This document shows, piece after piece, positions 6,341 through 61,943 of a stretch of 62,809 bases of DNA (its first letter is position 1; each line of letters opens with the position of its first letter). Position numbers and translations under genes: made by a program. The notes below the pieces were generated by a model that was not told where the DNA came from, made no database searches, and saw nothing but the letters and a program-made list of their open reading frames with translations. Source of the DNA: an uncultured bacterium (GTDB lineage: Bacteria; Poribacteria; WGA-4E; DTYX01; CAZRLY01); assembly GCA_964601015.1 (NCBI GenBank), contig CAZRLY010000001.1, forward strand, positions 1 through 62,809. Direction: 5' to 3'.

Positions 6341-7102
6341 TTGGCAAAAAAACGCAAAAAAGGGCAAAAGAGGAAAAACATCTATCAGAGACGTTTTGAC
6401 GACTCAGATTTAGCTTGGTTAGCAGGAAAATTTGAAGAAGACAAAAAGCTTAACCCGGATTTAACTATAGAAGAGTTTGCCATGCGCTATGGTATACAGG
6501 CAAAATTGATAAGCCGTTTCATTATCAAACCACACGGAGTAGGCAAGCATACCGTCAGCGTCTGGCATGGAACTACCGCAGACAGGGTAAAGGCAATCAT
6601 GGAAGAGGGGTTTAAAGGAAGCACACGAAAGAAGCTCTGGTTTACCATGAAACCCTTTGAGGCCAAATCTATCGCCAAGTGGAGAGCACTACAGCGCAAC
6701 GAGGAGCCGGCGGTACTCCGTTGCGAAATCAATTTAGCAAAATATTCGCAGTTTGATAGGCCGAAACCTAACCATTATGCCTTCAAACACTCCCATATCT
6801 CCAAAGAGGTTATCAGTAGTGTATCGGGGGTGAAGAGGGATAAGGTTAAACGCCCAAAGGAGAAAAAAAGCCAGCAAGAGATGGCAAATGTGATAATTAC
6901 AAAAGTATCAGGAAAATTGGGCGTTCTGTATTGGATTAATAGTTATCTGAAGTTGAAGGGTGAGGATGCTGTGAGCGAAGAACACCCCGCTGTTGAAGCT
7001 ATTCATAAGTGGGTGGAGACTCAATACGCGGAAGGTAGAGATGAACCGATTTTCGATGAGGAGATGTTGTTGCAGGTTATGAAACACCTTCCCTTGTCGT
7101 AG
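6341..7102 (+). CDS. Hypothetical protein with PARP/Tpt1-like (ADP-ribosyltransferase-fold) signature, copy 1
   Basis: TTG start after AGGAG. Lys-rich N-terminus MAKKRKKGQKRK. 'VSVWHGTTADRVKAIMEEGF' resembles the beta1-alpha1 NAD-binding start of PARPs (LWHGS...I...G) and Tpt1/KptA (YHGT...I...G), followed by 'LWFTMKPFEAKSIA'. Paralog at 25801-26460. Confidence 0.5.
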   Translation: MAKKRKKGQKRKNIYQRRFDDSDLAWLAGKFEEDKKLNPDLTIEEFAMRYGIQAKLISRFIIKPHGVGKHTVSVWHGTTADRVKAIMEEGFKGSTRKKLWFTMKPFEAKSIAKWRALQRNEEPAVLRCEINLAKYSQFDRPKPNHYAFKHSHISKEVISSVSGVKRDKVKRPKEKKSQQEMANVIITKVSGKLGVLYWINSYLKLKGEDAVSEEHPAVEAIHKWVETQYAEGRDEPIFDEEMLLQVMKHLPLS

Positions 7103-7158
7103 CGGCTGCTCTCTGTCCCAGCCTGTTGCCTAATTAACAATGAAAGGACCAAAAAAAT

Positions 7159-8148
7159 ATGAACGAAGGTATTGTAATCACGGCGCGCAAACCCACCTAC
7201 GATGTCAAATGCGGTGACAAGTTAGTTCGTTGCGTGTTGCGCCCTAAAATTAGGGAAGCAGATGAGAGATTACGAGCGGAAACGAAGGAAATGCGCTTGG
7301 CTGATTTAGTATCCGTCGGAGACAGGGTGGTTATCAACACACCTGATGGCATCGCGGGGCACATTGAGGAAATTTTACCACGAAAAAGTCAGTTCGGACG
7401 TACTCGCATTGGCAAACTTCCGCAGATAATAGCGGCTAATCTTGACGCACTCTTAATCATCTTCGCTACTAAAAATCCCCCGCTGAATTTGCGCATGTTG
7501 GACAGATTTTTGGTTACATCCGAAGCTGCCGGTATGGATTCTGTCATCTGCATCAACAAAATGGATTTGGCAAAACCGCAAAAGATAAAATCCCAGATGA
7601 ACGTCTATGAAGATTTTTACCCTGTTATCTATGCCAGCGCGGTGACAGGAGATGGAATTGATGAATTACGCGATGCTATGAAAGATAAAATCTCCGCAGT
7701 AGCGGGCCCGTCTGGCGCTGGCAAGTCCACCCTGTTAAACGCCGTTCAGCCGGGACTTAAACTTAAAATTGGCGATGTGAGCGAAAAAACTCAAAAGGGA
7801 AGACACACAACAACGGACGTGGAATTACTGTCGCTGGATTTTGGAGGATTCGTAGCGGATACGCCTGGTATCAGAGCATTAGGACTTTTTGAAATCCCGC
7901 TCGAATATCTGGACAGCTTTTTCCCTGAAATGCGCGAATACCTTGTCAAATGCAAATTCCCCAGTTGTTCGCATACACATGAACCCGATTGTTCAGTCAA
8001 AGAAGCTGTCGAAGCCGGTAAGATAAGCAAAAAACGCTATGACAGCTATCTGCGATTGTTGGGCGTCAAAGGGGGGCGATTTGAGCGAAGGACGAAAGGG
8101 CAAAAGCGTAAGACAAAAAGCGAAGAGCAAAAAGTTAAGGATTACTAA
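7159..8148 (+). CDS. rsgA: Ribosome small-subunit biogenesis GTPase RsgA/YjeQ
   Basis: Circularly permuted GTPase motifs NKMDL, GPSGAGKSTLLN and DTPG, plus the zinc knuckle 'CKFPSCSHTHEPDC'. Unusual Lys-rich C-terminal tail. Confidence 0.9.
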   Translation: MNEGIVITARKPTYDVKCGDKLVRCVLRPKIREADERLRAETKEMRLADLVSVGDRVVINTPDGIAGHIEEILPRKSQFGRTRIGKLPQIIAANLDALLIIFATKNPPLNLRMLDRFLVTSEAAGMDSVICINKMDLAKPQKIKSQMNVYEDFYPVIYASAVTGDGIDELRDAMKDKISAVAGPSGAGKSTLLNAVQPGLKLKIGDVSEKTQKGRHTTTDVELLSLDFGGFVADTPGIRALGLFEIPLEYLDSFFPEMREYLVKCKFPSCSHTHEPDCSVKEAVEAGKISKKRYDSYLRLLGVKGGRFERRTKGQKRKTKSEEQKVKDY

Positions 8149-8186
8149 AAGCTCTTTGCTCAAGAAATCAGGAGGAACACTACATC

Positions 8187-8948
8187 GTGCAAGAATATAA
8201 CGCACAACAAATCAAAGATTCATTGCTTAGAATTATCCAGAAAAATGAGCGCATGTTGGACAGATTTCAGGGCAGAATCATCCGGTCACAGTTTATAGAA
8301 CGCCCGAACCCTCGTTTAATCAGGACTGCGCAGGAGCATGTCCGATGGTATTCTGACCAGTTGTTAGTCCTCAGGGAAGAACTGCGCGATGTCGAAAGAA
8401 TGTTTGGAGGAACTGTTCAACTGCGCGAAGCGGAAGAAAGCGATATTCGCAAGATTTGGCAGTGGAGCAACAATATCGAAGTGCGAAAACTTTTACGCTG
8501 GCCGGCATATTCGCTACAAAAATGTACTGAGGATATCCATCGCTGGAAAGCCGATGAGGACTCATTTCCTTTTTCCATTGATAAACTCACTGGCGAACAT
8601 ATCGGTTTCTTAATTTTGAAGCGGCTTGGGCATCCGTGGGAAGAACGCACTGGGTGTTTGGATTTTATCATTATTGACAAGAATTATCGAGAATATGGCT
8701 ACGGAACCGAAGCAGTCAGAGCGGCTCTATCGTTCGCTTTTGATGAACTGGGCGTAAAGTTGCTTTATTTGTGGACGGCTGCGGATAATGGAGGTGCTAT
8801 CCGTTGTTTTGAAAAGTGCAGCTTTGAAGTTACCGATGTCGAAAACGACATAACCGCCGGCAATGGCGAGACTTATGATAAATACCAGATGACAGTGGAA
8901 AAAAACGAGCAGGTGGGTAAGGGAGCAGAGGAGCAGGGGAGCGGGTGA
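8187..8948 (+). CDS. GNAT-family N-acetyltransferase (RimJ/RimL-like) with ~85-aa N-terminal extension
   Basis: The GNAT core pattern 'FLILKRL...IIIDKNYREYGYGTEAVRAAL' contains the acetyl-CoA-binding-like Q/R-x-x-G-x-G/A segment. GTG start. The 3' end and stop lie inside an octamer-repeat tract. Confidence 0.7.
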   Translation: MQEYNAQQIKDSLLRIIQKNERMLDRFQGRIIRSQFIERPNPRLIRTAQEHVRWYSDQLLVLREELRDVERMFGGTVQLREAEESDIRKIWQWSNNIEVRKLLRWPAYSLQKCTEDIHRWKADEDSFPFSIDKLTGEHIGFLILKRLGHPWEERTGCLDFIIIDKNYREYGYGTEAVRAALSFAFDELGVKLLYLWTAADNGGAIRCFEKCSFEVTDVENDITAGNGETYDKYQMTVEKNEQVGKGAEEQGSG

Positions 8949-8965
8949 GCAGGTGGGCGGATGAG
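8907..8965. repeat. Octamer-type short tandem repeat tract (GGTGAGCR/GGAGCAGR family), copy 1
   Basis: GAGCAGGTGGG occurs twice (8907 and 8947), and GGAGCAGA/GGAGCAGG units lie between them. Related tracts are at 29789-29854 and 52802-52846. Confidence 0.7.
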
Positions 8966-8988
8966 AAAAAGCGAGGGGTAAATCTTAG

Positions 8989-11301
8989 ATGAACTATCAA
9001 GGTTTGGAACTTGACCAATTTCAAATAGAGGCGATTGATGCCATAAAGAGGGGGCAGACTGCGGTAGTTGCCGCGCCTACGGGTGCAGGGAAAACCGTCA
9101 TCGCTGAATATGCTATCGAAACTGCACTTTTAAACGACGAGAGGATAATCTACACCGCCCCCATAAAAGCGTTCAGTTGCCAGAAATTCAGGGATGTCTT
9201 CATAAAGTATTCAGATAAGGTAGGCATTATCACCGAGGATGTTTCAATTAACCCGCACGCCCCCGTCCTCATTATGACTACGGAAATATTCCGCAATACG
9301 ATATTCGATGCGCCTCAAACGTTGGTGGGTGTGCGATACGTCATCCTCGATGAGATGTACTTCATCAACAAAATTGGTGGCAAGACAGTCTGGGAGGAGA
9401 GCATCATCTTTGCCCCTGAACAGATTGAATTCCTCTGCTTGAGCACTACCGCGCCGAATTTGACACAATTTGCGATGTGGATAAGTTCGGTACGAAACAG
9501 GGATGTCAGGATAATCCACGAGGAAAAACGTCCTGTCCCTCTGGAGCTGAAGTTCTTCTCGGAAAAACTTGGCGTAACAACCCTTGATGAACTCCGCTCC
9601 GTTAAGCACCTCCCTCCTGGAGAACGCCACGAGCAAATCAGCGATGGTAAGAGGGACATCATCTCAACATTCTGTGACGAAGGGGGACTGCCGTGTTTGT
9701 ATTTCTCAATGAGCAGGAAGCGTTGTGAAGAACTCGCTTACGAGTACATGGAATTGGCTTCGCTTAAACCTGAGAAATACAAGCTGCTGTCAGAGGAAGA
9801 AGCAGAGAAGGCGGTTTCAATGTATGATGAGTTGTGCCTTGAACATGGACTTTCCGAAAGTAGGACGGTAGCGTTGATGCGCGAACTTATCGAAAAGGGA
9901 ATGGCATATCACCACTCCGGGCTTTTCCCTCAGGTAAAATTGGTCATTGAGAAACTCTTCGCGATGGGGTTCTTGAAGCTCATCTTTGCAACCGAGGGGT
10001 TCGCCGTGGGGATAAACGCGTACGCGCGAACCGTTGTGGTGGATGGACTTGAAAAGTTCGACGGCAACCGCAGGAGATACCTCAAAGCGCGGGAGTTCCA
10101 CCAGATGGACGGCAGGGCTGGAAGGCGAGGCTTAGATGAGAAGGGATGCGTATATGTGCGTGTAAATCCGTTTGAGGCTGAACTGCCGCTCGTCGAAAGG
10201 ACTACGATGGGCGAGGTTGAAAACATCGAAAGCCAACTCAACCTCTCCTATTCCGTCATCCTGAACTTATATGAGAGACACGGACGGAGGATATATTCCC
10301 TCCTCGAACGCAGCTTCAACAGGTATCAGATGATGGCACCGTTAAACGAGATAGAACAAAAACTCAGTTCTCTCGGACAAGTTGGTGAGATAAGTTGTCC
10401 TCACGGTAAGCCGGAGATTATAGAAGAATACCAAAAACTCACTGACATACTCACCAAGGAGAAGAACAACTTCAAGCGTGAAAGTAGGAGGGTAAGGCGG
10501 GAGTTCAAACGCGATAAATCCGCCCTGAACGCTGCCATTGCCAGATTGCAGGAAGTCCTTGCTGAATTCGAGCGCAGGAGAGCCGACATACCATGTCATG
10601 TTTGTGCTGAACGTGGCAAGTGCATAACACGGTTTCAGCAGGACGCTAAAATCAAGAAAACGTCGTCGCATCTCATTGAACAGAAGGAGAAGATGGACGG
10701 GGACATCCTTGGCGATGTGGCTCGAAAATTGACCTTCCTTGAAGGGCTCGGCTACATCAAAGGGGAAACAATAACCCCAAAGGGGCAGTTCGCCTCTCAC
10801 ATCTACGGACATGAACTTCAGACAACGGAGATTATCTGCAACGGGTATTTCGACATCTTGGATGAAATTGGGATAAATATAACCGCCGCCGCAATTGTCT
10901 TTCAAGCGCATCCTGATGCGTTCTACCAAGAACTTAGCAAGGAACAGCTTGATGTGAGTTTCGCCGAACTCAACGGGCTAATACAAAACCTTCGGCGGAG
11001 ACAGGTTGCCTTTGGTATAGACGAGCCGTTTAAGCTCCTTGATGCCAGCTTGAGTAACATAGTGAGCGTTTGGTGTAAAGGTTATGATGTCGATGAGTTG
11101 TCGAAATTCACCGATGCCGACGAAGGTGATATCGTCATGGGTTTGAGACAAACCATAAATCTCCTGCGTCAAATTGAGGATGCTGTTTGGGACGAATACC
11201 TCAAAGCGAAGGTGCTATCTGCTATCTCGTTGATGAAGGTGGATATTGTGGACGCTGAGAAAGCACTGAGAAGGGAGGTGGGCGATGGCAAGGAGGAATA
11301 G
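8989..11301 (+). CDS. Ski2/HelY-like superfamily 2 helicase with C-terminal DSHCT-like domain
   Basis: Motif I 'AAPTGAGKT', Ia 'TAPIKAFSCQKF', 'IMTTEIFRN', V 'ATEGFAVGINAYARTVV', VI 'HQMDGRAGRRG'. The C-terminus 'VWCKGYDVDELSKFTDADEGDIVMGLRQTINLLRQI' is DSHCT-like. Motif II reads DEMY rather than DExH, and motif III reads STT rather than SAT. Confidence 0.85.
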   Translation: MNYQGLELDQFQIEAIDAIKRGQTAVVAAPTGAGKTVIAEYAIETALLNDERIIYTAPIKAFSCQKFRDVFIKYSDKVGIITEDVSINPHAPVLIMTTEIFRNTIFDAPQTLVGVRYVILDEMYFINKIGGKTVWEESIIFAPEQIEFLCLSTTAPNLTQFAMWISSVRNRDVRIIHEEKRPVPLELKFFSEKLGVTTLDELRSVKHLPPGERHEQISDGKRDIISTFCDEGGLPCLYFSMSRKRCEELAYEYMELASLKPEKYKLLSEEEAEKAVSMYDELCLEHGLSESRTVALMRELIEKGMAYHHSGLFPQVKLVIEKLFAMGFLKLIFATEGFAVGINAYARTVVVDGLEKFDGNRRRYLKAREFHQMDGRAGRRGLDEKGCVYVRVNPFEAELPLVERTTMGEVENIESQLNLSYSVILNLYERHGRRIYSLLERSFNRYQMMAPLNEIEQKLSSLGQVGEISCPHGKPEIIEEYQKLTDILTKEKNNFKRESRRVRREFKRDKSALNAAIARLQEVLAEFERRRADIPCHVCAERGKCITRFQQDAKIKKTSSHLIEQKEKMDGDILGDVARKLTFLEGLGYIKGETITPKGQFASHIYGHELQTTEIICNGYFDILDEIGINITAAAIVFQAHPDAFYQELSKEQLDVSFAELNGLIQNLRRRQVAFGIDEPFKLLDASLSNIVSVWCKGYDVDELSKFTDADEGDIVMGLRQTINLLRQIEDAVWDEYLKAKVLSAISLMKVDIVDAEKALRREVGDGKEE

Positions 11302-12979
11302 AATAGGTAAGCACTGGCATAACAACGTAAGCGCGCATCTCACAGCAAGATACGATGTAGCGGTCAAACAGGGACAGGAGGCTGTCGAGGGGATGTCTGC
11401 CCGTCATTTTAGTAAGTTTTCCGAAATATATGGGTATTATTCCCGCCCTGAAATCCAGCAAGCCATTTTTGACTATGCTAAGGGACGTAAGATAACCGTC
11501 CTCAAACACTTCAGAGCGCTTTACAAATCCCTCGAAAAACCGGAGGATATTCTGTCTCTGGCAATCTATCACGCGATGTACAGCAAGTTATGGACTTCGT
11601 TTCATGGGATGGTATCCAGAACCTCTGAGGACAGGAAGGTATGTGATTTTGTGATAGAGGTGGATAACAAACGCAGTTGGAAACGATGTTTCGAGGCGAC
11701 AAGGCCTGTAATCGACATGCTCAACGATTTCAACGTATACTATTGTGTTAAGTTCAGCGGACACGCCAGCGCGCACGTTATTATTCCCGGCGAGGTATTC
11801 CCGGGCGATAGGATGAGCAGCGCAAAATACCGCTCACACCTTATGAACTTCGTAGGCAAACTCGTCAAAGGCGAAAAACTCGACCGGTCTTTTACTAATC
11901 CCTCCCATTTCCTCCGGCTTGCTTACTCGATTAACGAGAACACAGGGTTGGTGAGTATGCCCATATTCATGGAGGATTTTGACAATTTTTCATGGCGGGA
12001 CGCGAAGCCCGAAAACGTGGAAATACTGGAGGGATGGTGGAAATATGCCCCCACTGATGCTCAAGAACAGATGGCAAAACTCCTTGACTTCTTGACGAAG
12101 GAACGCTTTGCCATCGAAAAACAGGCAGCCTCGAAGCAGTTCCAAAAAGTTGACACATTTGAGGACGTGAAAGATAAACCTAAAGGGGGTGTGAGATTCG
12201 GACAACTTCTTCAGCCAACCGACAAACAACTTTACGAAGGGATGCTCAAAACTGCAAGGGAACACCTCAATTGGGTTGCATCAACGAAGGAGAATCCAAA
12301 TTTTAAAGCCGCTCTTGACGAGGTAAGATATCTCACTCAAAACGGGCTTGTGCTGAGTCTCTTCGAGATAAGCCAAAAACACAAATTTGACCTGAAAGAA
12401 CTCTGGAAGGCGTGGCGATGGGAACTGAAAAGTGACGACATCAGCTATTATTCTGACCAGTCGGTGCAAAAGGACATCTTTGAGGCGACACAAAAAAGAA
12501 ATGTGAAACTCGGCGAAGATGGCCCGGTCGTGAGAATCGAAAACCCGGAGGATGTGTTTCTACTCGCTGTTTTCATGAACATGCGTTTTGGCATAAATGA
12601 ACACCCATCATTTTACCGTTCCCTTGCGTGGGGCATACCGGGCAAACTGACTGAGGGATGTGACATCGCAATTCAAGCCGATGGCAAAGGCGACAGAGCA
12701 CGGGCGGCTGAAGCGATGCACGAAGCAGTCTCCGCTGTATCCGAGCTTGAGGTTGAAACGACGGTATTTGACGAGGGGATGAGCAGTTTCACCTGTGTCA
12801 TTCCACATCACGACAAAGAGGACAACCTCCTCAAGAGTGTCAAGAAACAGCTTAACATTCGCACGAAAACATCAGTAAAACTGCTTGATGAAACGAGTTA
12901 TATGCTTGCTCCCCGCTCGCTCAATTCATTTACGGGAAAACCGTGTATCCCAGTGTTGGTCAACAATCCTTCCTTATAG
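11285..12979 (+). CDS. PriS-like archaeo-eukaryotic primase (AEP) protein with second degenerate AEP-like domain
   Basis: Motif I 'CDFVIEVDNK', motif II 'VKFSGHASAHVIIP', motif III 'HFLRLAYSINENTGLVSMPI'. The C-terminal repeat carries 'CDIAIQADGK', 'VFDEGMSSFTCVIP' and 'YMLAPRSLNSFTGKPCIPV'. Overlaps the helicase stop by 17 nt. Confidence 0.6.
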   Translation: MARRNRIGKHWHNNVSAHLTARYDVAVKQGQEAVEGMSARHFSKFSEIYGYYSRPEIQQAIFDYAKGRKITVLKHFRALYKSLEKPEDILSLAIYHAMYSKLWTSFHGMVSRTSEDRKVCDFVIEVDNKRSWKRCFEATRPVIDMLNDFNVYYCVKFSGHASAHVIIPGEVFPGDRMSSAKYRSHLMNFVGKLVKGEKLDRSFTNPSHFLRLAYSINENTGLVSMPIFMEDFDNFSWRDAKPENVEILEGWWKYAPTDAQEQMAKLLDFLTKERFAIEKQAASKQFQKVDTFEDVKDKPKGGVRFGQLLQPTDKQLYEGMLKTAREHLNWVASTKENPNFKAALDEVRYLTQNGLVLSLFEISQKHKFDLKELWKAWRWELKSDDISYYSDQSVQKDIFEATQKRNVKLGEDGPVVRIENPEDVFLLAVFMNMRFGINEHPSFYRSLAWGIPGKLTEGCDIAIQADGKGDRARAAEAMHEAVSAVSELEVETTVFDEGMSSFTCVIPHHDKEDNLLKSVKKQLNIRTKTSVKLLDETSYMLAPRSLNSFTGKPCIPVLVNNPSL

Positions 12980-13023
12980 AGCGTCGCCTGGCGAGATAGA
13001 ACTACGCCGCTACGCTGCACATT

Positions 13024-13052
13024 GGCGGGGCAAGGCCCCGCCGCTACATTTT
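13024..13052. terminator. GC-rich hairpin between convergent genes (bidirectional terminator candidate)
   Basis: GGCGGGGC-AAG-GCCCCGCC (13024-13042), followed by a TTTT run at 13049-13052. Confidence 0.55.
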
Positions 13053-13074: not shown

Positions 13075-14538
13075 CTAAAATTCTGCATGAAACAGGTTCT
13101 TTTTGTGAACAATTTCCAATCCTCTTGGCGTATGCCAGAACAAGCGGATGGAAGCCTCGCCTGCCAATTCAAAATATTCTATCTTGATTGCGTGATAACC
13201 CTTCGTCAGGCGTATTGGTTTACTTCCCGAAATCATCGGTGAACCTTGTGCCGAATCTGAGATTATTTCCTTGTCATCAATAGAGAGTTTAACACCATCA
13301 TTGCTATATACATAGAAATTATAGTTGCCGCCCTTTTCTATTTTTATCAAACCGTTCCAGCGGACGGAGAAGTGGTCAGCAGGAACCCTGCGGTCAGGCG
13401 GCCCAAAGCCCCAGATGAAATTAATTCTGCTATCTACCCTTGCGAAGATTTTCTTGTCAAAATTTTGCCCGCGACAGTATGTTCCTATTAGCCCGGGTTT
13501 AAGTTGTTCTTTCCACCAGGATTGCCATTTATCCATAGCCTCTTTTCGTTCATTCTCGGTGGCATTTGGGCCAAATCCATGACGTTTCCCTGTTACCCTT
13601 TCCAATATATTAATTGCAAAACGTCGCATCTCGACATCCGGGTTTTCGAGTGTTTCCATTAACGCGCCTACAGCTTGAGCTTTAGCCAATGCATCCTGTG
13701 GATAGAAGGCATTGGACGCTATATCTTGTACCACAATATCTTCATCCTTAGAGGCTTTGTACAAACCGCGCATGTCGAGTTTGGCGGCGAATACTTCCGC
13801 CGCTTTCCTACGAACAGATACGTTACTGTTGTCAAGGGCTTTAAGCAATCCCGCAGAATGATTGAGATGCGCCAACTTTTCAACCGCAAAAACCCGTACG
13901 GCGGAATCGCTGTCATTTAGAGCGGGTAGCATCCTGTCAGGTTCCCTGCGTTCGGCGAATTTTGTTACAGCCATCTTGCGTACCTCTATGTCCTTATGTT
14001 GTAGGGCGGTTTCCAGAAATTGTGGGCTTTCAAATCTCAGCGCATATCTCAGCGTCTTTTGAAATTCCTCTGTAGTACCCTTGAATGTCCTGTGCATGTG
14101 TATCTCGATATGCGTATAGTTCCACCAAACGTTATTGATGTCCACTCCAGGAGGGAGGGGGCTTTTCATTTGAAACCATGTGCCGTCTACATGCCCCAGT
14201 GATTCAATTGAGCCAACCGCTCGGTAGAATACGATAATCGGCTCGTCAACTTTGAGATGCTTCATTAACATCTTCGGTGTGCTTCCATATCTCACCTGTC
14301 CTGCTGCAACGTTAATTTTAATAGTTTTAAGTCCGCTTTTGCCTTTGATATCCTCTTTTACTTCGACTGTAGCTCGTTGCCTCAACTTATCGGCTGTTTT
14401 CACTATACCAAAGACGATGTTTATGCTTTCATCTAACACTTCTTGCAGTTTATATTCTTGTTCAACGAAAGCCAGAGTCGTACTTGTAGAAAAACCTGCA
14501 AATAAAATCGTTAAGGTTAGTAAAAGTAGTCTTCTCAT
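13075..14538 (-). CDS. Secreted HEAT-repeat protein with C-terminal PA14 domain
   Basis: Signal peptide MRRLLLLTLTILFAGF. Central HEAT-like repeats. The C-terminus 'HFSVRWNGLIKIEKGGNYNFYVYSNDGVKLSIDD...IEYFELAGEASIRLFW' matches the PA14 pattern. Confidence 0.65.
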   Translation of the reverse strand: MRRLLLLTLTILFAGFSTSTTLAFVEQEYKLQEVLDESINIVFGIVKTADKLRQRATVEVKEDIKGKSGLKTIKINVAAGQVRYGSTPKMLMKHLKVDEPIIVFYRAVGSIESLGHVDGTWFQMKSPLPPGVDINNVWWNYTHIEIHMHRTFKGTTEEFQKTLRYALRFESPQFLETALQHKDIEVRKMAVTKFAERREPDRMLPALNDSDSAVRVFAVEKLAHLNHSAGLLKALDNSNVSVRRKAAEVFAAKLDMRGLYKASKDEDIVVQDIASNAFYPQDALAKAQAVGALMETLENPDVEMRRFAINILERVTGKRHGFGPNATENERKEAMDKWQSWWKEQLKPGLIGTYCRGQNFDKKIFARVDSRINFIWGFGPPDRRVPADHFSVRWNGLIKIEKGGNYNFYVYSNDGVKLSIDDKEIISDSAQGSPMISGSKPIRLTKGYHAIKIEYFELAGEASIRLFWHTPRGLEIVHKKNLFHAEF

Positions 14539-23166: not shown

Positions 23167-24174
23167 TTAGCGTGTTCTTGTTTCAATAAATGCCTTGAGT
23201 ACATCAAGTTTGATTTTTTGCCCTTTTTGAGGGTAATCATAGGGGAATAACCACCATTCTTCAGTAAAGGAAGCGTTTTCACCCGGTTGAAGTGTCTCTA
23301 AGGGTCCGATTGGTTCCAATTCACACATCTTTTCTTTGAAATACCAAATTGAAATGGTGAGAGCCGCCATTTCGCCATAGATGCGTTTCGGATATACGGG
23401 GAACCTTTTCACAAAAAGCAGATCATCTCGCGTAATATACCCCAACCAGCCTGCATACGAATCAATGCCGAACTTAGGCTGTGGCGGCGTTCCTGATATT
23501 TCAAGAAAACCATCCCTTATTTTTATATTCGGATGGGCTTCAGGCCGATAGTTCATAACCGGTCCTGGGCCGTAGAGAATATATCCCAATGGGAAACGGC
23601 TTCCCTGAGTTAGCGGTACTAAACAGATGCCACCGCCTGTGGCAAAGGTGCGACTCCAATGGGAATACTGTTTTGTGGAACCGCTGATATTTTTGATAGT
23701 CTGTGTGCATTTTAGAAGTGACGATACTTTATCAAGTTTGAACTCACGAATGAGTTGGACACCAGTAATTTGGTCTTTAACACTGGTTAGACGTGCTGTG
23801 CGCGGTGCGATAATCTCGGCTGTCCACTTGCCAAGCCAGAGGTACGGACGACGAGGAATTATCTGCTCTGGGCCGATGTCAAAACGTCCTGCACAGGGGT
23901 CAATTTTCCTCTTCCCCGGTATATTAGTCCAGCCATCCTGCTTTGGGTCAATGTACAGTGCATTCTGCCCGTTCAGAGAGTACTCCAGCACTCTACCTCC
24001 GCAGTTTGGTTCCAGTATAACCTTGATGGTGTTATTAGAAAGTTGAACACAGTTGGAATACCCATGACTGCTTACCCAGGCGGTTCCCTCTGAAGTAGCT
24101 TGAGGGAAAGCCTGGATGCAGAGTAGCATAGTCAGTACGAAAATAATCAACTCGAAAGTGATGTTTCTTATCAT
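23167..24174 (-). CDS. Secreted hypothetical protein (mutarotase-like/DUF4380-like, tentative)
   Basis: Signal peptide MIRNITFELIIFVLTMLLCIQAF after a GGGAGGA RBS. 'ILEPNCGGRVLEYSLNGQNALY' resembles DUF4380-type proteins, from memory only. Confidence 0.4.
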   Translation of the reverse strand: MIRNITFELIIFVLTMLLCIQAFPQATSEGTAWVSSHGYSNCVQLSNNTIKVILEPNCGGRVLEYSLNGQNALYIDPKQDGWTNIPGKRKIDPCAGRFDIGPEQIIPRRPYLWLGKWTAEIIAPRTARLTSVKDQITGVQLIREFKLDKVSSLLKCTQTIKNISGSTKQYSHWSRTFATGGGICLVPLTQGSRFPLGYILYGPGPVMNYRPEAHPNIKIRDGFLEISGTPPQPKFGIDSYAGWLGYITRDDLLFVKRFPVYPKRIYGEMAALTISIWYFKEKMCELEPIGPLETLQPGENASFTEEWWLFPYDYPQKGQKIKLDVLKAFIETRTR

Positions 24175-24200
24175 TGTCTCATATCCTCCCTTTTCCCTAC

Positions 24201-24278
24201 TGGTGATTGGTGATTGGTAGAGTGGTGGGTGGTTGTGTTTGCGAAGTACCACTAACCACTAACCAGTTTACCAGTTAC
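24201..24278. repeat. Heptamer short tandem repeats (GGTGATT x2 ... CCACTAA x2, CCAGTT(T)A x2)
   Basis: Direct reading gives TGGTGATTGGTGATTGGTAGAGTGGTGGGTGG ... ACCACTAACCACTAACCAGTTTACCAGTTAC. The two halves are partly complementary. Confidence 0.7.
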
Positions 24279-24441: not shown

Positions 24442-24759
24442 TTATTCAGATTTCGATATCTTAATGGTGATGTCAGCCGGCAGTGCCAGTCCTGCTTCTA
24501 CTTCGACCGCTTTGAGAATCCCGACTGGAACAGGACAAGCAGGATGGAGGCAATACTTAGCTGCTAATTGCAACGTGAGGGGGCCTTCATCCCTAAATGT
24601 AATTTCTCTGAAGGGCACAACCTTGCGCAATTCTGCTGCCAGACGCTGGATTGACTCACATTCGCTTTCAATCGAAAGGGCACAATCAGAGCCATCCATA
24701 CGAACCTCTACATCGGTTGTGAAACCACATATTCCCGCAAATATCTTCGCCTTTGACAA
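24442..24759 (-). CDS. Small cysteine-rich conserved hypothetical protein
   Basis: 105 aa. TTG start 8 nt after AAGGAG. Cys residues in 'GICGFTT', 'SDCALSIESECES' and 'YCLHPACPVPVG'. No function assignable. Confidence 0.5.
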   Translation of the reverse strand: MSKAKIFAGICGFTTDVEVRMDGSDCALSIESECESIQRLAAELRKVVPFREITFRDEGPLTLQLAAKYCLHPACPVPVGILKAVEVEAGLALPADITIKISKSE

Positions 24760-24931: not shown

Positions 24932-25804
24932 TTAAGTTAGTGTGGGAGAATTTTTGAAAGTAGAACGATTAAGAAATCTTCCAAAGTTAATTGAGTGCTC
25001 TACAGCATCGGAGGGAATTTGCCACCAGTCGTCCCACACCAAAACCTCTTCGGGCATTGCCCACTGGGGATGGAAAAACTCATAGTCGTCTAAAGGAATG
25101 GGAAGGCTAACGAGCCCAGTATGCTCGTGCATAGAATACGGCAGGCGCAAAAAATGGTCAGGCAGCGTGAAAAAGGACATATCCAAACAGCGTGGTGATG
25201 GAAGTAGCCGGCGGACAAAGTCGAGTATTGAAGAGCGCAGGCGGTTGGCAAGCGTGGCGTCCGCCGGAAAAGCTTCCGCTGGAATAATCAAATGAGGGCT
25301 GGTATTGCCGCTGAATTTAACGAAAAACGTCACCTCAAACTCACGTAGCCGTCGAACAATCGGTAAGGCTGCTTCAAACGCCATCTGCCATGGATCCGAC
25401 TTAAAATCAATATCAAGCACGAAATCCTTGAGGATAGGTTGGGTGCCGTTGTATCGCGTGATGGTGCCGTGTAGAGCGGGCCAGAAGAGCGGCAGGTCAA
25501 CAGCAGCGAAAGCGAGCGGTAGGATGTCGTCGGGGGTTGTGGGGGCGGGCATAGCGCAACGAAAAGCCCGTTGCAAAGTCAACTTACGGGATTCTGCGAA
25601 TCGGTAAATCGCCTGTTGAACATCCGGGCAGGCATAATAATCGTAGAGCAGGTTGAACACGATTCGGTCTGCTGGCGGTAGCTTGTCTTGCAGGTAGAGT
25701 GTCAGTAGTCGCTCGCCCTCGCGCAACGCACGCACATAGCCGGCCTTCCCGCTCCACAATTTTGATTGATGTTTGCCCGGAGGCTTTCTTTTCTTTCGCT
25801 TCAT
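24932..25804 (-). CDS. PriS-like archaeo-eukaryotic primase (AEP) protein, short paralog
   Basis: Motif I 'DFVLDIDFK' (DxD), motif II 'VKFSGNTSPHLIIP', motif III 'HFLRLPYSMHEHTGLVSLPI'. Colinear with the N-domain of 11285-12979. Start at MKRKKRK, overlapping the upstream stop as ATGA. Confidence 0.6.
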   Translation of the reverse strand: MKRKKRKPPGKHQSKLWSGKAGYVRALREGERLLTLYLQDKLPPADRIVFNLLYDYYACPDVQQAIYRFAESRKLTLQRAFRCAMPAPTTPDDILPLAFAAVDLPLFWPALHGTITRYNGTQPILKDFVLDIDFKSDPWQMAFEAALPIVRRLREFEVTFFVKFSGNTSPHLIIPAEAFPADATLANRLRSSILDFVRRLLPSPRCLDMSFFTLPDHFLRLPYSMHEHTGLVSLPIPLDDYEFFHPQWAMPEEVLVWDDWWQIPSDAVEHSINFGRFLNRSTFKNSPTLT

Positions 25805-26460
25805 AACATCTCCTTCGCAAAGTCCCACTCATCCAACAGGGCATCAAGTTTGTCCTGCGATGGTGCGAAGAGGTCAGAAGTATGCGCGTATATTTGCCAG
25901 GTTTCAAGGGCGGGGTGTTTCGCGAAGGCCTTTGTTTCGGGCGGAATAAACACGCACTGCGTGAATACTTTGGGAAATGTTTTGAAAACCACATGCATCT
26001 GCTTCCGATGTTGAGCAGCAATGCATCTTTGAACGTACAATCGCTCTAACACGCAAGCAATCAGCGCAGGGAAATCAGATTCCTGACGTGCTCGTCCTTG
26101 TGCGCGTTCCAAGCAGACATACGGCTCAAACGATGTATATACGGGACATACAAATCCTCCTGCCAAAATTTGAACAGCCCTGGATAGTGTCGTACCATGC
26201 CACACACAAACATAGTTTTCTGGCGAGGAAAACAGAGAGTCAGCGGAAAACCAAATCCTAAGCAGCAACCCACGCGCACCGTAGTTTATGAGAAAGTCAA
26301 AAAAAGTTTGTTCAGGATGTTTCTGTGCCTCTCTCTTGTATTGGAGTAGCGCCCACGCTAAGTCGCTCTTCTCAAAGGTTGGAAAAATTATCGGCGTTTT
26401 CTCAATTGTCTTTGGTTGATGTTTTGATTTATTCTTCTTCTTGTGTTTCATATGTTGCAT
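25801..26460 (-). CDS. Hypothetical protein with PARP/Tpt1-like (ART-fold) signature, copy 2
   Basis: 'VCVWHGTTLSRAVQILAGGF' followed by 'PVYTSFEPYVCLERA'. Shares 'SDLAW' and a Lys-rich N-terminus (KHKKKNKSKHQPK) with 6341-7102. Start uncertain (ATG at 26460 or 26451, GTG at 26478). Confidence 0.5.
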   Translation of the reverse strand: MQHMKHKKKNKSKHQPKTIEKTPIIFPTFEKSDLAWALLQYKREAQKHPEQTFFDFLINYGARGLLLRIWFSADSLFSSPENYVCVWHGTTLSRAVQILAGGFVCPVYTSFEPYVCLERAQGRARQESDFPALIACVLERLYVQRCIAAQHRKQMHVVFKTFPKVFTQCVFIPPETKAFAKHPALETWQIYAHTSDLFAPSQDKLDALLDEWDFAKEML

Positions 26461-27176
26461 TAATTCAGGCGACCACACGGGGTTGCGTCTACAAAGTTAT
26501 ACACTATAAAACAATCAAAATGGTAAAAATAAAAGTATCCGCATCCTGTAGTGCGCACCGTTTCACTTTGGACGCCCCACACGGGCTTCAGCAATGTAAA
26601 CAACCTCTATAAAACACAGGATCGGATGCACTTTGACAGGGATGTTTCATTTTACCTTAAAATCACAGCGAAGATAACCTGACACTTCTCCCCACAGAGT
26701 CCACAAAGTTACATCTGACGCTTGTTTATCTATTTTTCCGAGAAGACCAGTAACGTCCGGTTAAAAAATTGCATCTGTCGTAAGTAATCAAGAAGAATGG
26801 AAAACGGAGTAGCAAGCTTTGGGAAAGGTACAAATTACGCAGGCTAATTCTATTAAATGATGAACTAAATGTTTGGTCAAAGTTACTTAGCTTGCGTCCT
26901 ATTGCTCCTAAAAAGCCTGCTAATCCATAGTGCAAAATCCTAACCGGACATCACTGGAGAAGACAGATGAATCGGTAAAGAGTGGCAATTTTTTTTCTTT
27001 ACTTTAACGTTTTAGTCAATTTAGTCAATTTTTAATTCAGCGGGGAAGAAACGGGGTGGCACCCAGAGAAGTTGCTTGCCCCGGTCCGAGGGCATACCTC
27101 CGAAACATTACTCAATTCTGACCGGGGAAGCCCATGTCAACTGGATTCGATGCTCTATTTTTTCCTTCGGTTTCTA

Positions 27177-60963: not shown

Positions 60964-61036
60964 TGCCGGTGTGGGGAATCGAACCCCAGACAACACGGGT
61001 ATGAGCCGTGCGCTCTTGCCGCTGAGCTACACCGGC
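60964..61036 (-). tRNA. tRNA with CAU anticodon, elongator type (Met, or Ile2 if lysidine-modified)
   Basis: GCCGGTGTAGCTCAGCGGCAAGAGCGCACGGCTCATACCCGTGTTGTCTGGGGTTCGATTCCCCACACCGGCA folds as a cloverleaf with a 7-bp acceptor. It lacks the initiator GGG/CCC anticodon stem. CCA is not encoded. Confidence 0.85.
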
Positions 61037-61122: not shown

Positions 61123-61766
61123 CTTACCACTACAGCTTTCGCTGCCTGAACCATTTGTGGTCTGGACTTTCCCTTCACCCTCGGCTGAACCGTTAGGGTG
61201 CCTGCCGTCAAGTCTCTACACCTTCTCTGAAAATCAGACAACTTTCAGAGCTTGGCTCGGGATTACCACCGTCTGAGGTTTCCCCGAATTTGACAGGTAT
61301 CACACATGAGTTTCCCCATGTGCAGCCCATTGCAAGATTAATTTCCAAGCGTCACGGTATTTGGCGGAACGTGGTTTTCGCTGACGTTTATCAGCCTCAA
61401 CCATGTGAATTTCACTACCGTAACTGATGAACACATCTACGGGAAAAACATAGAACAAATCCAACTCTGGAATATAAACCAAAGCGAAATCAAAATCCGA
61501 TAGCTCATATACATCTCGAATCATTGAGCGGCGGTTTGTTTTTGTCCGACGATTGTCAACCACATAGTTTTGACGTGATTTGTCAAACCATGCACATTTG
61601 ACCTGGATTTTGACGAGTTTACCTCCTATATCGAATACCAAATCGTACGGCAATCGGTCTCCAACAGGGGTAAGAACTCCCCACCCGCGCTTTAATGCTT
61701 CAAGAAGAGCTACCTGTTCAGCAATGTCCCCCTTCAATTTTGTGTCCATATTAATCCTGCGAATTG
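61123..61766 (-). mobile_element. Group I intron (IC3-like) inserted between U33 and C34 of tRNA-fMet
   Basis: The 5' exon ends in U and the intron ends in G (..GTGGTAAG). The 3' 177 nt contain GTCAAATTCGGGGAAACC, CCGAGCCAAGC and GAAGGTGTAGAGACTTGACGGCA..CACCCTAA. These closely match the catalytic-core strings of the Azoarcus tRNA intron as I remember them. Confidence 0.8.
61300..61749 (-). CDS. Intron-encoded PD-(D/E)XK homing endonuclease (I-Ssp6803I-like)
   Basis: 149 aa, starting 17 nt into the intron. 'KGDIAEQVALLEALKRGWGVLTPVGDRLPYDLVFDIGGKLVKIQVKC' fits the small PD-(D/E)XK family that includes the cyanobacterial tRNA-fMet intron endonuclease. Confidence 0.7.
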   Translation of the reverse strand: MDTKLKGDIAEQVALLEALKRGWGVLTPVGDRLPYDLVFDIGGKLVKIQVKCAWFDKSRQNYVVDNRRTKTNRRSMIRDVYELSDFDFALVYIPELDLFYVFPVDVFISYGSEIHMVEADKRQRKPRSAKYRDAWKLILQWAAHGETHV

Positions 61767-61832
61767 AGCCCAACGAGCTTCCAAACTGCTCCACCCCGCG
61801 TCAATGAGAAACAAGAAAATTTAGCGGTGCAA

Positions 61833-61918
61833 TGGGCGAAGAGGGATTTGAACCCTCACGCTCTTATAAGGAGCGAGGGATTTTAAGTCCCTTGTGTCTA
61901 CCATTCCACCACTCGCCC
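61833..61918 (-). tRNA. tRNA-Leu(UAA), intronless
   Basis: GGGCGAGTGGTGGAATGGTAGACACAAGGGACTTAAAATCCCTCGCTCCTTATAAGAGCGTGAGGGTTCAAATCCCTCTTCGCCCA. Long variable arm. CCA is not encoded. Confidence 0.9.
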
Positions 61919-61943
61919 ATTTTCAAATCACTGTCCTTATATT

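Follow-up and report, generated by a model that had tools for sequence, protein, structure and literature searches.

A putative poribacterial gene module that pairs an ART-fold protein with a tandem archaeo-eukaryotic primase-polymerase

What could bring an ART-like protein, a ribosome-assembly GTPase, an acetyltransferase, an RNA-type helicase, and an archaeo-eukaryotic primase-polymerase (AEP) together in a single run of bacterial genes? The question is raised by positions 6341-12979 of the window (the whole 62,809-nt stretch of DNA analysed here), where recomputation of the ORFs reproduced the five plus-strand genes and the spacings of the original prediction, i.e., gaps of 56, 38, and 40 nt followed by an overlap of 17 nt. 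In order, these genes encode WHGT1 (6341-7102, 253 aa, with a TTG start and AGGAG 6 nt upstream), RsgA (7159-8148, 329 aa, a 30S ribosome-assembly GTPase), an X·GNAT fusion protein (8187-8948, 253 aa), a DSHCT-bearing SF2 RNA helicase of the Mtr4/Ski2/HelY type (8989-11301, 770 aa), and AEP1, a tandem AEP (11285-12979, 564 aa). The signature motifs quoted previously (SVWHGTTADRVKAIMEEGF, DFVIEVD, KFSGHASAHVIIP, and FLRLAYSINENTG) can all be read directly in the translations. A G+C-rich hairpin followed by a T-rich tail, which resembles a terminator by consensus match only, is located on the plus strand at 13023-13043, which is 44 nt past the AEP1 stop codon and between convergent genes; its 9-bp stem has 8 G-C pairs. 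By family search, the window contains two AEP genes, two ART genes, one RsgA, one X domain, and no more. It also carries restriction-modification (R-M) genes and a HepT/MNT pair.

WHGT1 consists of a K/R-rich N-terminal tail (MAKKRKKGQKRK) and three domains, namely a helix-turn-helix (HTH)-like domain that matches a homeodomain profile (6395-6520, residues ~19-60), a minimal ART core similar in fold and profile matches to the NAD lobe of Tpt1/PARP proteins (6548-6835, residues ~70-165), and a conserved helical C-terminal domain (6887-7090, residues ~183-250), for which we found no relative in Pfam or PDB and one weak phage match. When the AlphaFold2 model of WHGT1 (pLDDT 81) was compared with PDB structures using Foldseek, the best match was the NAD lobe of Tpt1/KptA (8tg3 and 1wfx; E 1e-4, rmsd 2.4-3.0 Å over ~93 residues, 22-24% identity), followed by PARP10/14/15 and DarT1, and profile searches returned Tpt1, exotoxin A, and PARP3/10. 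Predicted structure and profiles thus place WHGT1 in the ART superfamily, as had been proposed from its WHGT signature. H76, G77, T78, T79, I86, G90, F91, A112, C128, and F148 are invariant in the family. Neither WHGT1 nor its paralogue WHGT2 has a Pfam match; within the family and among its distant relatives, there are scores above or close to the thresholds of the Pfam models PARP, ART-PolyVal, and Tpt1, and the ART protein of locus L044 reaches 43.7 bits, above the gathering score of PARP (PF00644).

Tpt1/KptA is an RNA 2'-phosphotransferase that also ADP-ribosylates 5'-phosphate ends. Both it and WHGT1 have an N-terminal helical domain resembling nucleic-acid-binding domains followed by an ART lobe, and the HGT...R....I...G[FL] pattern of WHGT1 can be aligned with Tpt1. 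However, WHGT1 scores 16.3 bits against NF002013 (cut-off 231) and does not match PF01885 (cut-off 26 bits), has Trp/Phe in place of the second His, and bears an additional conserved C-terminal domain. The Tpt1 Arg-His-Arg-Arg tetrad is absent, as the N-terminal domain contains no conserved R-H or Arg and most homologues have Gly or a different residue where the fourth Arg would be (R95 in WHGT1); between residues 140 and 165 there is also no acidic residue invariant in the family that could represent the catalytic Glu on strand 5. Tpt1-like chemistry, which had been suggested for this protein, is therefore not established, and with both features missing the ART protein may bind NAD or ADP-ribose instead of transferring it. 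The H-Y-Phi PARPs (PARP10/14/15/16), which form the second tier of fold matches, lack the catalytic Glu as well, and distant ART relatives match PARP, ART-PolyVal, and exotoxin A. They differ from the ART family in that the latter has a minimal core of ~95 residues, Phe/Trp instead of Tyr as the aromatic residue at position 2, and a bacterial, chromosomal setting with an HTH and a C-terminal domain for which Pfam and PDB gave no relative.

The AlphaFold2 model of AEP1 (pLDDT 81.5) has its best PDB matches in Foldseek to Prim-PolC and the LigD polymerase domain (E 9e-7 to 1e-4), followed by CAPP and PriS; AEPs dominate the list with probability 1.00, and the viral structure library also returns mainly primases. 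On predicted fold and motifs, AEP1 belongs in the AEP superfamily, in agreement with the original prediction. It is a tandem duplication, whose N and C halves align with a probability of 99.9% (hhalign, E 4e-34). After a basic N-terminal tail, alignment and model identify an N-terminal AEP copy with all catalytic residues (11402-12100, residues ~40-272), a disordered linker (residues 273-307), and a C-terminal degenerate AEP-like copy that has lost the motif II His and the motif III Asp (12272-12976, residues ~330-564). The columns of the motif I acidic pair, the motif II His, and the motif III Asp are invariant or near-invariant in the family alignment, and D121, E/D125, D127, S158-G159-x4-H164, D200, H208, and R211 are identical in 29/29 Poribacteria-type sequences; judged by these residues, the N-terminal copy is predicted to be catalytically intact. 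A description of AEP1 as PriS-like is only partly appropriate: it has the primase-polymerase fold, and the family profile HFLRLAYSxNENTG aligns to the human PRIM1 motif NHLLKSPFSVHPKTG, but the model is structurally nearer to the NHEJ-type polymerase domain and Prim-PolC than to PriS. Scores against curated models are all under threshold, both for the LigD polymerase (PF21686, 17.7 bits for AEP1 and 25.7 for AEP2, threshold 27.4; TIGR02778, 15.3 and 23.2, threshold 214.7) and for PriS (PF01896, 13.7 bits for AEP2, threshold 26.8; TIGR00335, 14.2, threshold 143.5; no match for AEP1).

The three genes between them are more familiar. RsgA is of the canonical type (TIGR00157, 2e-69, 233.9 bits against a cut-off of 100; Pfam RsgA_GTPase, 7.6e-56) with a K/R-rich C-terminal tail, and cluster-linked orthologues score 239-251 bits with TIGR00157 versus 193 bits for the second RsgA of L037/L040. 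The helicase matches the Pfam domains DEAD (1.5e-16) and DSHCT (6.8e-23) and, in PDB, Mtr4/Dob1 (7e-91) and Ski2 (1e-88) much better than Hel308 (1e-34); it has >7700 homologue clusters at E <= 1e-50, and in relatives its adjacency to the AEP gene tolerates inserted R-M or regulator genes. The earlier identification of these two proteins is thus borne out, and both are ordinary, widespread housekeeping types, which are either co-regulated neighbors or a pointer to RNA or the 30S subunit. The third gene does contain the expected acetyltransferase domain (Acetyltransf_3, 6.7e-18; best PDB match spermidine N1-acetyltransferase, 5e-10), but as a whole it is a fusion of a helical X domain of ~75 aa (8187-8411, residues 1-75), which aligns with stand-alone ORFs, and a SpeG- or AAC(6')-like GNAT core defined by Pfam and PDB matches (8412-8945, residues 76-253). 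Alignment across loci reveals the X domain elsewhere as a separate small ORF directly upstream of AEP; X is a candidate accessory subunit of AEP.

The second ART-AEP pair noticed previously at 24932-26460 was also recovered, on the minus strand. According to public gene calls, it comprises WHGT2 (25801-26460, 219 aa, family HMM 1e-45), a shorter and divergent paralogue of WHGT1, and AEP2 (24932-25804, 290 aa), a single-domain paralogue of the N-terminal copy of AEP1, which overlap by 4 nt; the longest ORFs span 25801-26478 and 24932-25828, respectively. Identity is 28% over 112 aa between WHGT1 and WHGT2 (E 7e-13) and 40% over 235 aa between AEP1 and AEP2 (E 1e-56). WHGT2 keeps the basic tail, the HTH-like domain, and the ART core, with just a remnant of the C-terminal domain, and AEP2 has an intact catalytic signature (LigD_Prim-Pol, 1e-5). 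The genes that follow AEP2 encode DUF6951 and DUF4380 proteins.

Of 30 metagenome contigs selected with the ART protein as the only query, 11 had a gene of the AEP family, supporting conserved co-occurrence of the two families. Genes were arranged as X-AEP-RsgA-ART (L004, L050, L052, and L055), X-AEP-ART (L033, L060, L062, and L064), ART-RsgA-X·GNAT (L037-L040), or ART-AEP (the second pair of the window), and an AEP-HEAT gene adjoins ART in L045; co-occurring genes are separated by gaps of <=40 nt or overlap. Because both families are rare (64 AEP clusters among 5.8e9 proteins, and 663 ART representatives at E <= 1e-3 among 1.84e9), chance adjacency is negligible. The components also exchange domains: X is fused to GNAT at some loci and free beside AEP at others, one AEP homologue (P0023; hhalign 87%, E 4e-6) contains an inserted HTH module of the ART type, a MAKKRK-type basic tail begins members of both families, and HEAT repeat fusions occur in distant relatives of both. 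The claim that the pairing is not accidental therefore holds in that it is frequent and takes several gene orders, but it is not obligatory, since long AEPs occur without ART (L003, L029, and L032) and ART genes without AEP (L035-L040 and L066). No description of the AEP-ART association was found in the literature searched, consistent with the initial impression that the combination is not a described system.

It might be argued that these genes share no function and that we are looking at inherited synteny within one phylum together with read-through co-transcription with housekeeping genes. The well-resolved examples all come from Poribacteria or unassigned metagenome contigs, and as the clear examples are probably from one phylum, some of the synteny may be inherited and not selected; the separate occurrence of AEP and ART genes and the insertions between helicase and AEP point in the same direction. 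However, at least four different gene orders bring these rare families together, with protein identities of 28-45%, and in L045 the partner is an AEP of another architecture (AEP-HEAT). X·GNAT, the HTH module, and HEAT repeats are domains common to the components, and the same genome holds an independent second pair with a 4-nt overlap. We consider the absence of any shared function improbable.

An anti-phage or conflict system, with a DarT- or CmdT-like ART effector, a primase-polymerase, and a helicase, appears similarly improbable. Such a system would fit the tandem ART duplicates, which are common (2-3 copies in L042, L046, L047, L050, and L054), the variable domain fusions with HEAT and polyvalent-type relatives, the R-M genes and HepT/MNT pair of the same window, the AAA_15/21-DUF3696 ATPase that follows AEP in L032, and the generic HamB matches of the helicase in PADLOC. 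However, no PADLOC model matched ART, AEP, or GNAT, no relative of either family was found in viral contigs, and AEP relatives were absent from phages and plasmids and ART relatives from plasmids. Neither a macrodomain, the partner by which DarTG would be recognised, in any neighborhood examined nor a conserved ARH, NADAR antidote, or nuclease effector was detected. The genes are embedded in a housekeeping operon with a canonical rsgA, their neighbors are ordinary metabolic genes, and long and short AEP paralogues recur together in four MAGs, which fits vertical inheritance and not island-like mobility.

A somewhat more plausible alternative, although we still rate it as unlikely, is that the targets of ART, GNAT, and possibly AEP are RsgA, ribosomal proteins, or 16S rRNA at a late stage of 30S assembly or in quality control. 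The GTPase or an rRNA end, for instance, could be what ART ADP-ribosylates, and the Mtr4-like helicase and AEP could form an RNA unwinding and 3'-tailing pair, by analogy with the TRAMP complex. The canonical rsgA lies between AEP and ART in four loci, with overlaps or gaps of <=40 nt, and immediately 3' of ART in five further loci; the helicase, overlapping AEP1, is Mtr4/Ski2-like and not Hel308-like; and the closest match of the ART core is an RNA enzyme. Single loci add a second RsgA and a RIO1 kinase (L037), an ABC-F ATPase directly after ART (L064), and an RNase_T exonuclease between ART genes (L045). GTPases are classic ART substrates, and RsgA/CpgA of B. subtilis is co-operonic with a kinase that modifies it. 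However, the minimal recurrent units, X-AEP-ART and the ART2-AEP2 pair, do not include RsgA, R-M or regulator genes may separate helicase and AEP, and helicase and RsgA are housekeeping proteins of very many bacteria that have neither AEP nor ART. We also know of no characterised AEP in RNA metabolism. The E. coli rpsU-dnaG-rpoD operon, in which a primase gene beside a small-subunit ribosome-related gene is co-transcribed with no shared pathway, is a precedent for co-regulation alone, although its primase belongs to the DnaG-type TOPRIM superfamily, no ART is found there, and the AEP described here is a lineage-specific, additional primase-like gene. Doubtful as well is the proposal that AEP, together with the Tpt1-like ART, RsgA, and the Mtr4-like helicase, marks and extends or repairs the ends of rRNA or other RNAs in 30S assembly or surveillance; if true, this AEP would be, to our knowledge, the first whose role in the cell is directed at RNA or ribosomes, and the system would be a bacterial, AEP-based analogue of tailing-plus-helicase RNA quality control.

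The explanation that we consider most likely, with about even chances of being correct, is that these genes form a chromosomal module whose two enzymes, an ART directed at nucleic acids and an active primase-polymerase, share DNA or RNA ends as their substrate. Judged by sequence, its core would comprise an intact AEP, X in free or GNAT-fused form, and the HTH-ART-helical protein; it is chromosomal, vertically inherited, and essentially specific to Candidatus Poribacteria, lies inside the rsgA operon in many lineages, and in one clade is also next to the Mtr4/Ski2-like helicase. Starting from gene structure, folds, AEP catalytic residues, internal duplication, and reshuffled co-occurrence, all of which the analysis documents, we infer the enzymatic activity, substrate, and physical interaction of the AEP, ART, and X proteins as follows. 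ART and AEP, both lineage-specific, would share one nucleic-acid substrate. The HTH-like domain may guide ART to a nucleic-acid terminus or phosphate, which ART would use NAD+ to recognise or ADP-ribosylate, like Tpt1/KptA and some PARPs, and AEP may then prime or fill a short stretch at the site, like Prim-PolC or the LigD polymerase domain at 5'-phosphorylated gaps, with X as a possible accessory subunit and the dead C-terminal AEP copy as a possible scaffold. From what is known of AEP biochemistry, DNA is the likelier substrate, whereas the presence of RsgA and an RNA helicase is a hint of RNA. It counts against this shared-end module that RsgA and GNAT are hard to fit into a pathway acting on DNA ends. 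Nor is a ligase, Ku, nuclease, or enzyme that removes ADP-ribose conserved near the loci examined, although a pathway of repair or reversible marking would be expected to have one.

How does such a module compare with known systems? Prim-PolC and the LigD polymerase domain (PDB 6sa1, 5op0, 2fao, and 2r9l) are the best matches of AEP1 (TM 0.5 on the target), with a weak sequence match to 2fao (E 0.005); they share with it the acidic motif I, the SGxxxxH motif II, and the R..YS motif, as well as a chromosomal location outside mobile elements. AEP differs from them in scoring under the Pfam and NCBIfam thresholds, in the tandem of active and degenerate copies, in its conserved N-terminal helical module (YYSRxxIQQA...) and basic tail, and in its partners, which are ART, the X domain, and rsgA, with no Ku, ligase, or phosphoesterase in any neighborhood (neither Ku nor ligase is among the Pfam-annotated neighbors of any locus examined). 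With PriS it shares the alignment of HFLRLAYSxNENTGLVS with human PRIM1 NHLLKSPFSVHPKTGRIS, a motif III Asp 8-9 residues upstream of this motif as in PRIM1, and faint PF01896 matches in some homologues, but its fold matches to Prim-PolC and the LigD polymerase domain are stronger than those to PriS (E 3e-3 to 1e-2), and neither a PriL-like gene in the neighborhoods examined nor a zinc motif was seen. The bacterial AEPs known so far are mainly NHEJ/BER polymerases that have Ku or ligase partners, or else replicases of mobile elements. The family described here departs from them as a chromosomal, vertically inherited one with tandem active and degenerate copies, and in a partner set of a Tpt1/PARP-like ART, a small X subunit, GNAT, and rsgA; it also offers three uncharacterised domains with clear testable residues, namely the X domain, the ART C-terminal domain, and the AEP N-terminal module. 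If ART and AEP do share a substrate, the module would connect NAD+-dependent nucleic-acid modification in bacteria with synthesis that starts de novo or fills gaps, the same link between modification and synthesis that eukaryotic PARP-dependent repair makes with unrelated parts.

ORF translation identified five plus-strand genes at 6341-7102, 7159-8148, 8187-8948, 8989-11301, and 11285-12979, and the recomputed intergenic spacing was 56, 38, and 40 nt followed by a 17-nt overlap; the co-directional cluster described in the original prediction was thus reproduced in its coordinates and spacing, and all motifs quoted for its genes were found in the translations. The first gene, which encodes the ADP-ribosyltransferase (ART)-fold protein WHGT1, starts with TTG behind an AGGAG and is separated by a 170-nt spacer from serA, which lies upstream of the cluster together with an inositol-monophosphatase gene. 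A promoter scan was uninformative, as it returned 11 sites where 9.1 would be expected, and the strongest terminator-like hairpin of the region (13023-13043; 9 bp including 8 G-C pairs, with a T-rich tail) is located 44 nt past the stop codon of the fifth gene, which encodes the archaeo-eukaryotic primase (AEP) AEP1. The proposed recurrence of ART and AEP as a minimal pair at 24932-26460 was also observed: public gene calls place AEP2 (24932-25804) and WHGT2 (25801-26460) on the minus strand with a 4-nt overlap, and both proteins are paralogous to the cluster pair (WHGT1 and WHGT2, 28% identity, E 7e-13; AEP1 and AEP2, 40% identity, E 1e-56). The complete count for the window is two genes each for AEP and ART, one for RsgA, and one copy of a helical domain of ~75 aa, here called X.

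Several other features of the window were recorded. On the minus strand upstream of the cluster (65-2671), Pfam labels on the identical contig mark restriction-modification genes (Eco57I-like methylase/endonuclease and XamI-type endonuclease), and between the two ART-AEP loci (~16.8-17.7 kb, minus strand) such labels mark a HepT/MNT (nucleotidyltransferase) toxin-antitoxin pair. A group I intron (Rfam RF00028, 63 bits versus a gathering score of 50) is present at 61147-61344 (minus strand, flanks to ~61080), between tRNA-Met(cat) (60964-61036) and tRNA-Leu(taa) (61832-61919). Because sequence resembling a tRNA T-arm and acceptor end (GGTCGTAGGTTCGAATCCTACCCCCGCAACCA) lies directly 3' of it, this intron probably splits a tRNA gene that was not called by ARAGORN.

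WHGT1 had no above-threshold family match. Its AlphaFold2 model (24 homologues, pLDDT 81) resembled the NAD lobe of Tpt1/KptA in structure searches (E 1e-4, rmsd 2.4-3.0 Å, 22-24% identity), followed by PARP10/14/15/16, a pertussis-like toxin subunit, and DarT1. In the family profile, the HGTT...R...I...GF segment aligned to Tpt1, exotoxin A, and PARP3/10; one family member passed the Pfam PARP gathering score, and distant relatives matched PARP, ART-PolyVal, exotoxin A, and Tpt1. Taken together, the fold matches, profile alignments, and Pfam matches of relatives support the PARP/Tpt1-like NAD-binding signature predicted for gene 1 and indicate that WHGT1 is an ART-superfamily protein with three predicted domains, namely an HTH-like, a minimal ART, and a helical C-terminal domain. 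The N-terminal three-helix segment aligned weakly to homeodomains at the family-profile level. For the strongly conserved C-terminal domain, no relative emerged above noise when its profile was searched against PDB and 21 members were scanned against Pfam; its residues 182-246 (6884-7078) also occur stand-alone in many small proteins, the domain is additionally fused to unrelated HMGL-like/dCache and permease domains, and a 37%-identical match was found in the unannotated gut phage genome MT835478.1. WHGT1 was ruled out as a Tpt1 orthologue, since the Arg-His-Arg-Arg tetrad is absent and the catalytic-Glu position has no invariant acidic residue. Antibiotic modification by an Arr-like ART and an AAC-like GNAT was also dropped, because the fold matches did not include Arr and this reading leaves the AEP unexplained.

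The AEP1 model (pLDDT 81.5) best matched Prim-PolC and the LigD polymerase domain (E 9e-7 to 1e-4), with CAPP and PriS next. In the family profile, HFLRLAYSxNENTG aligned to NHLLKSPFSVHPKTG of PRIM1, the spacing to the motif III Asp being as expected, and D121, E/D125, D127, S158-G159, H164, D200, H208, and R211 were identical in all 29 collected Poribacteria-type AEP sequences. The description of gene 5 as an AEP with PriS-like motifs therefore holds for the fold and for the alignment to PRIM1, but the structure is nearer to Prim-PolC and the LigD polymerase domain than to PriS. Judging from profile-profile comparison of residues 40-272 with 330-564 (probability 99.9%, E 4e-34), AEP1 is an internal duplication (tandem AEP), and its second copy no longer has the His of motif II or the Asp of motif III; AEP2 is the single-domain form. 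Both the AEP and ART families have a basic, MAKKRK-type tail at the N-terminus, and the N-terminal region of one AEP homologue (P0023) includes an HTH module of the ART type (hhalign 87%, E 4e-6). HEAT fusions are known in distant relatives of both families; those of the AEP-HEAT kind belong to remoter AEP homologues from Anaerolineae, Chloroflexia, and Lentisphaerae. A HEAT-repeat and PA14 protein is also encoded convergently with AEP1 (13075-14538, minus strand).

Neighborhoods of short (single-domain) AEPs differ from those of long (tandem) ones. Downstream of AEP2 are minus-strand genes for DUF6951 (24442-24759) and DUF4380 (23167-24252) proteins, and in other genomes (L007-L014) the short AEP is followed by a shared family of ~300-610-aa proteins (with a DUF4097 domain in the 585-aa representative of L013) and, in several of them, preceded by an ECF sigma/anti-sigma pair. 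On a complete Poribacteria chromosome (OZ244587.1; L012, 9965-11129), the AEP homologue is broken into four consecutive ORF fragments, apparently reflecting a frameshifted pseudogene or sequencing errors.

Gene 2 encodes a canonical RsgA (TIGR00157, 234 bits versus a cut-off of 100), in agreement with its earlier assignment as a ribosome-assembly GTPase. Two related loci contain a second, less canonical RsgA ~1.5 kb downstream of an ART-RsgA-X·GNAT trio (L037, 13563-15704; L040, 4970-5890); in L037, a sigma70_r4 protein is encoded before this copy and a RIO1-type kinase after it, a kinase type not known to be common in bacteria. The cluster RsgA was also considered as a specialised paralogue, an idea that was rejected because RsgA proteins of ART-linked clusters score higher to TIGR00157 (239-251 bits) than this second copy (193 bits). 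With the more canonical RsgA in the cluster, the lineage-specific genes have joined a housekeeping operon rather than recruited a specialised GTPase. Gene 3 has the proposed GNAT core (nearest to spermidine and aminoglycoside acetyltransferases), but its first 75 residues are a domain of their own, X. Nine of the retrieved loci, on seven distinct contigs, encode X as an independent ORF of ~100 aa that either immediately precedes the AEP gene or overlaps it; we rejected the idea that these ORFs are GNAT fragments, as they match X and not the GNAT core. Gene 4 is, as predicted, a Mtr4/Ski2-type RNA helicase with DSHCT (best PDB match Mtr4, 7e-91, versus Hel308, 1e-34), and its family is very large: a threshold of E <= 1e-50 still leaves >7700 clusters.

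Both key families are rare: the AEP family comprises 64 clusters among 5.8e9 proteins, and the ART family 663 representatives (E <= 1e-3) among 1.84e9; their named homologues are from Candidatus Poribacteria, and the contigs of the window are from marine metagenomes of JGI and TARA samples. Neighborhood tabulation supported conserved co-occurrence, with the AEP family present in 11 of 30 metagenome loci retrieved by the ART protein alone, many of the rest being too short to judge. The full order ART-RsgA-X·GNAT-helicase-AEP was found in the window and, with one gene inserted, in a 74%-identical relative, while ART-RsgA-X·GNAT occurs with no AEP within 8-10 kb in L037-L040. Other loci have X-AEP-RsgA-ART(-ART) (L004, L050, L052, and L055) or X-AEP-short ART (L033, L060, L062, and L064), both with gaps of <=40 nt or gene overlaps, or a helicase followed by AEP, either immediately or after inserted genes (L002, L076, and L077). 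The short ART-AEP pair is that of the window (24932-26460), and AEP-HEAT with ART was found in L045 and L048; in L045 the AEP-HEAT gene adjoins ART genes, and ART-HEAT fusions exist too. An RNase_T/DEDDh exonuclease (182 aa, Orn/DnaQ-like) is encoded between the ART genes of L045 (3487-4032), and in L064 the gene immediately after X-AEP-ART (10511-12385) encodes an ABC-F type ATPase. The ART-AEP pairing is not obligatory: AEP is alone in L003, L029, and L032, and lenient family-HMM and WHGT2 searches upstream of seemingly solitary AEPs (L001, L003, L005, L007-L014, L029, and L032) detected a hidden ART gene in L011 only. Nevertheless, the same rare families occur in at least four gene orders at 28-45% identity, which argues for selection on the linkage, beyond inherited synteny alone. 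Genes may share an operon and no pathway, as do the primase gene and a ribosome-related gene in the E. coli rpsU-dnaG-rpoD operon; set beside these varied gene orders, AEP and ART being neighbors with no functional link seems very unlikely.

A conflict system was also considered. PADLOC gave no match for ART, AEP, or GNAT and otherwise only generic helicase and P-loop matches, so a defence system was rejected. A mobile-element origin was likewise rejected on the basis of searches in which pattern scans of viral contigs revealed no relative of either family, tblastn of AEP1 gave no match in phage or plasmid collections, and WHGT1 had no plasmid match and a single weak phage match limited to its C-terminal domain. 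Neighbors of the AEP/ART genes are ordinary metabolic genes, and no Ku, ligase, macrodomain, or nuclease gene is conserved near them in the examined loci. We regard a role in conflict as very unlikely.

The smallest combination that recurs consists of AEP and ART, usually joined by X. Known relatives of both proteins act at nucleic-acid termini. Prim-PolC and the LigD polymerase domain recognise gaps or ends that are 5'-phosphorylated, where they carry out fill-in synthesis with NTPs. For Tpt1/KptA enzymes, the acceptor of the transferred ADP-ribose is a 2'- or 5'-phosphate in RNA or DNA (PMC12678800, PMC10415124). The most economical model, to which we give an even chance, is that both enzymes would act on one shared DNA or RNA end or gap, the HTH-like domain directing ART to the substrate, and AEP being assisted by X as an accessory subunit and scaffolded by its own inactive second copy. 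As to the substrate of such a shared end, AEP precedent would favor DNA, whereas rsgA and a helicase of the Mtr4 type are hints of RNA. A module specifically directed at the 30S subunit would fit the presence of a ribosome-assembly GTPase in the cluster; it is considered unlikely, though less so than a conflict system.

The linkage is solid and unusual, but function is predicted only, and the organisms are uncultivated. The view that this combination is not a known system agrees with searches of the literature on AEPs, Tpt1/KptA, RNA repair, Poribacteria, and HelY/DSHCT, including an AEP-family survey (PMC5862659), in which we found no description of an ART-AEP-RsgA association. At the family level, the tandem AEP and the Tpt1/PARP-like ART are new variants within known superfamilies; their association with each other, X, and rsgA appears to be undescribed.
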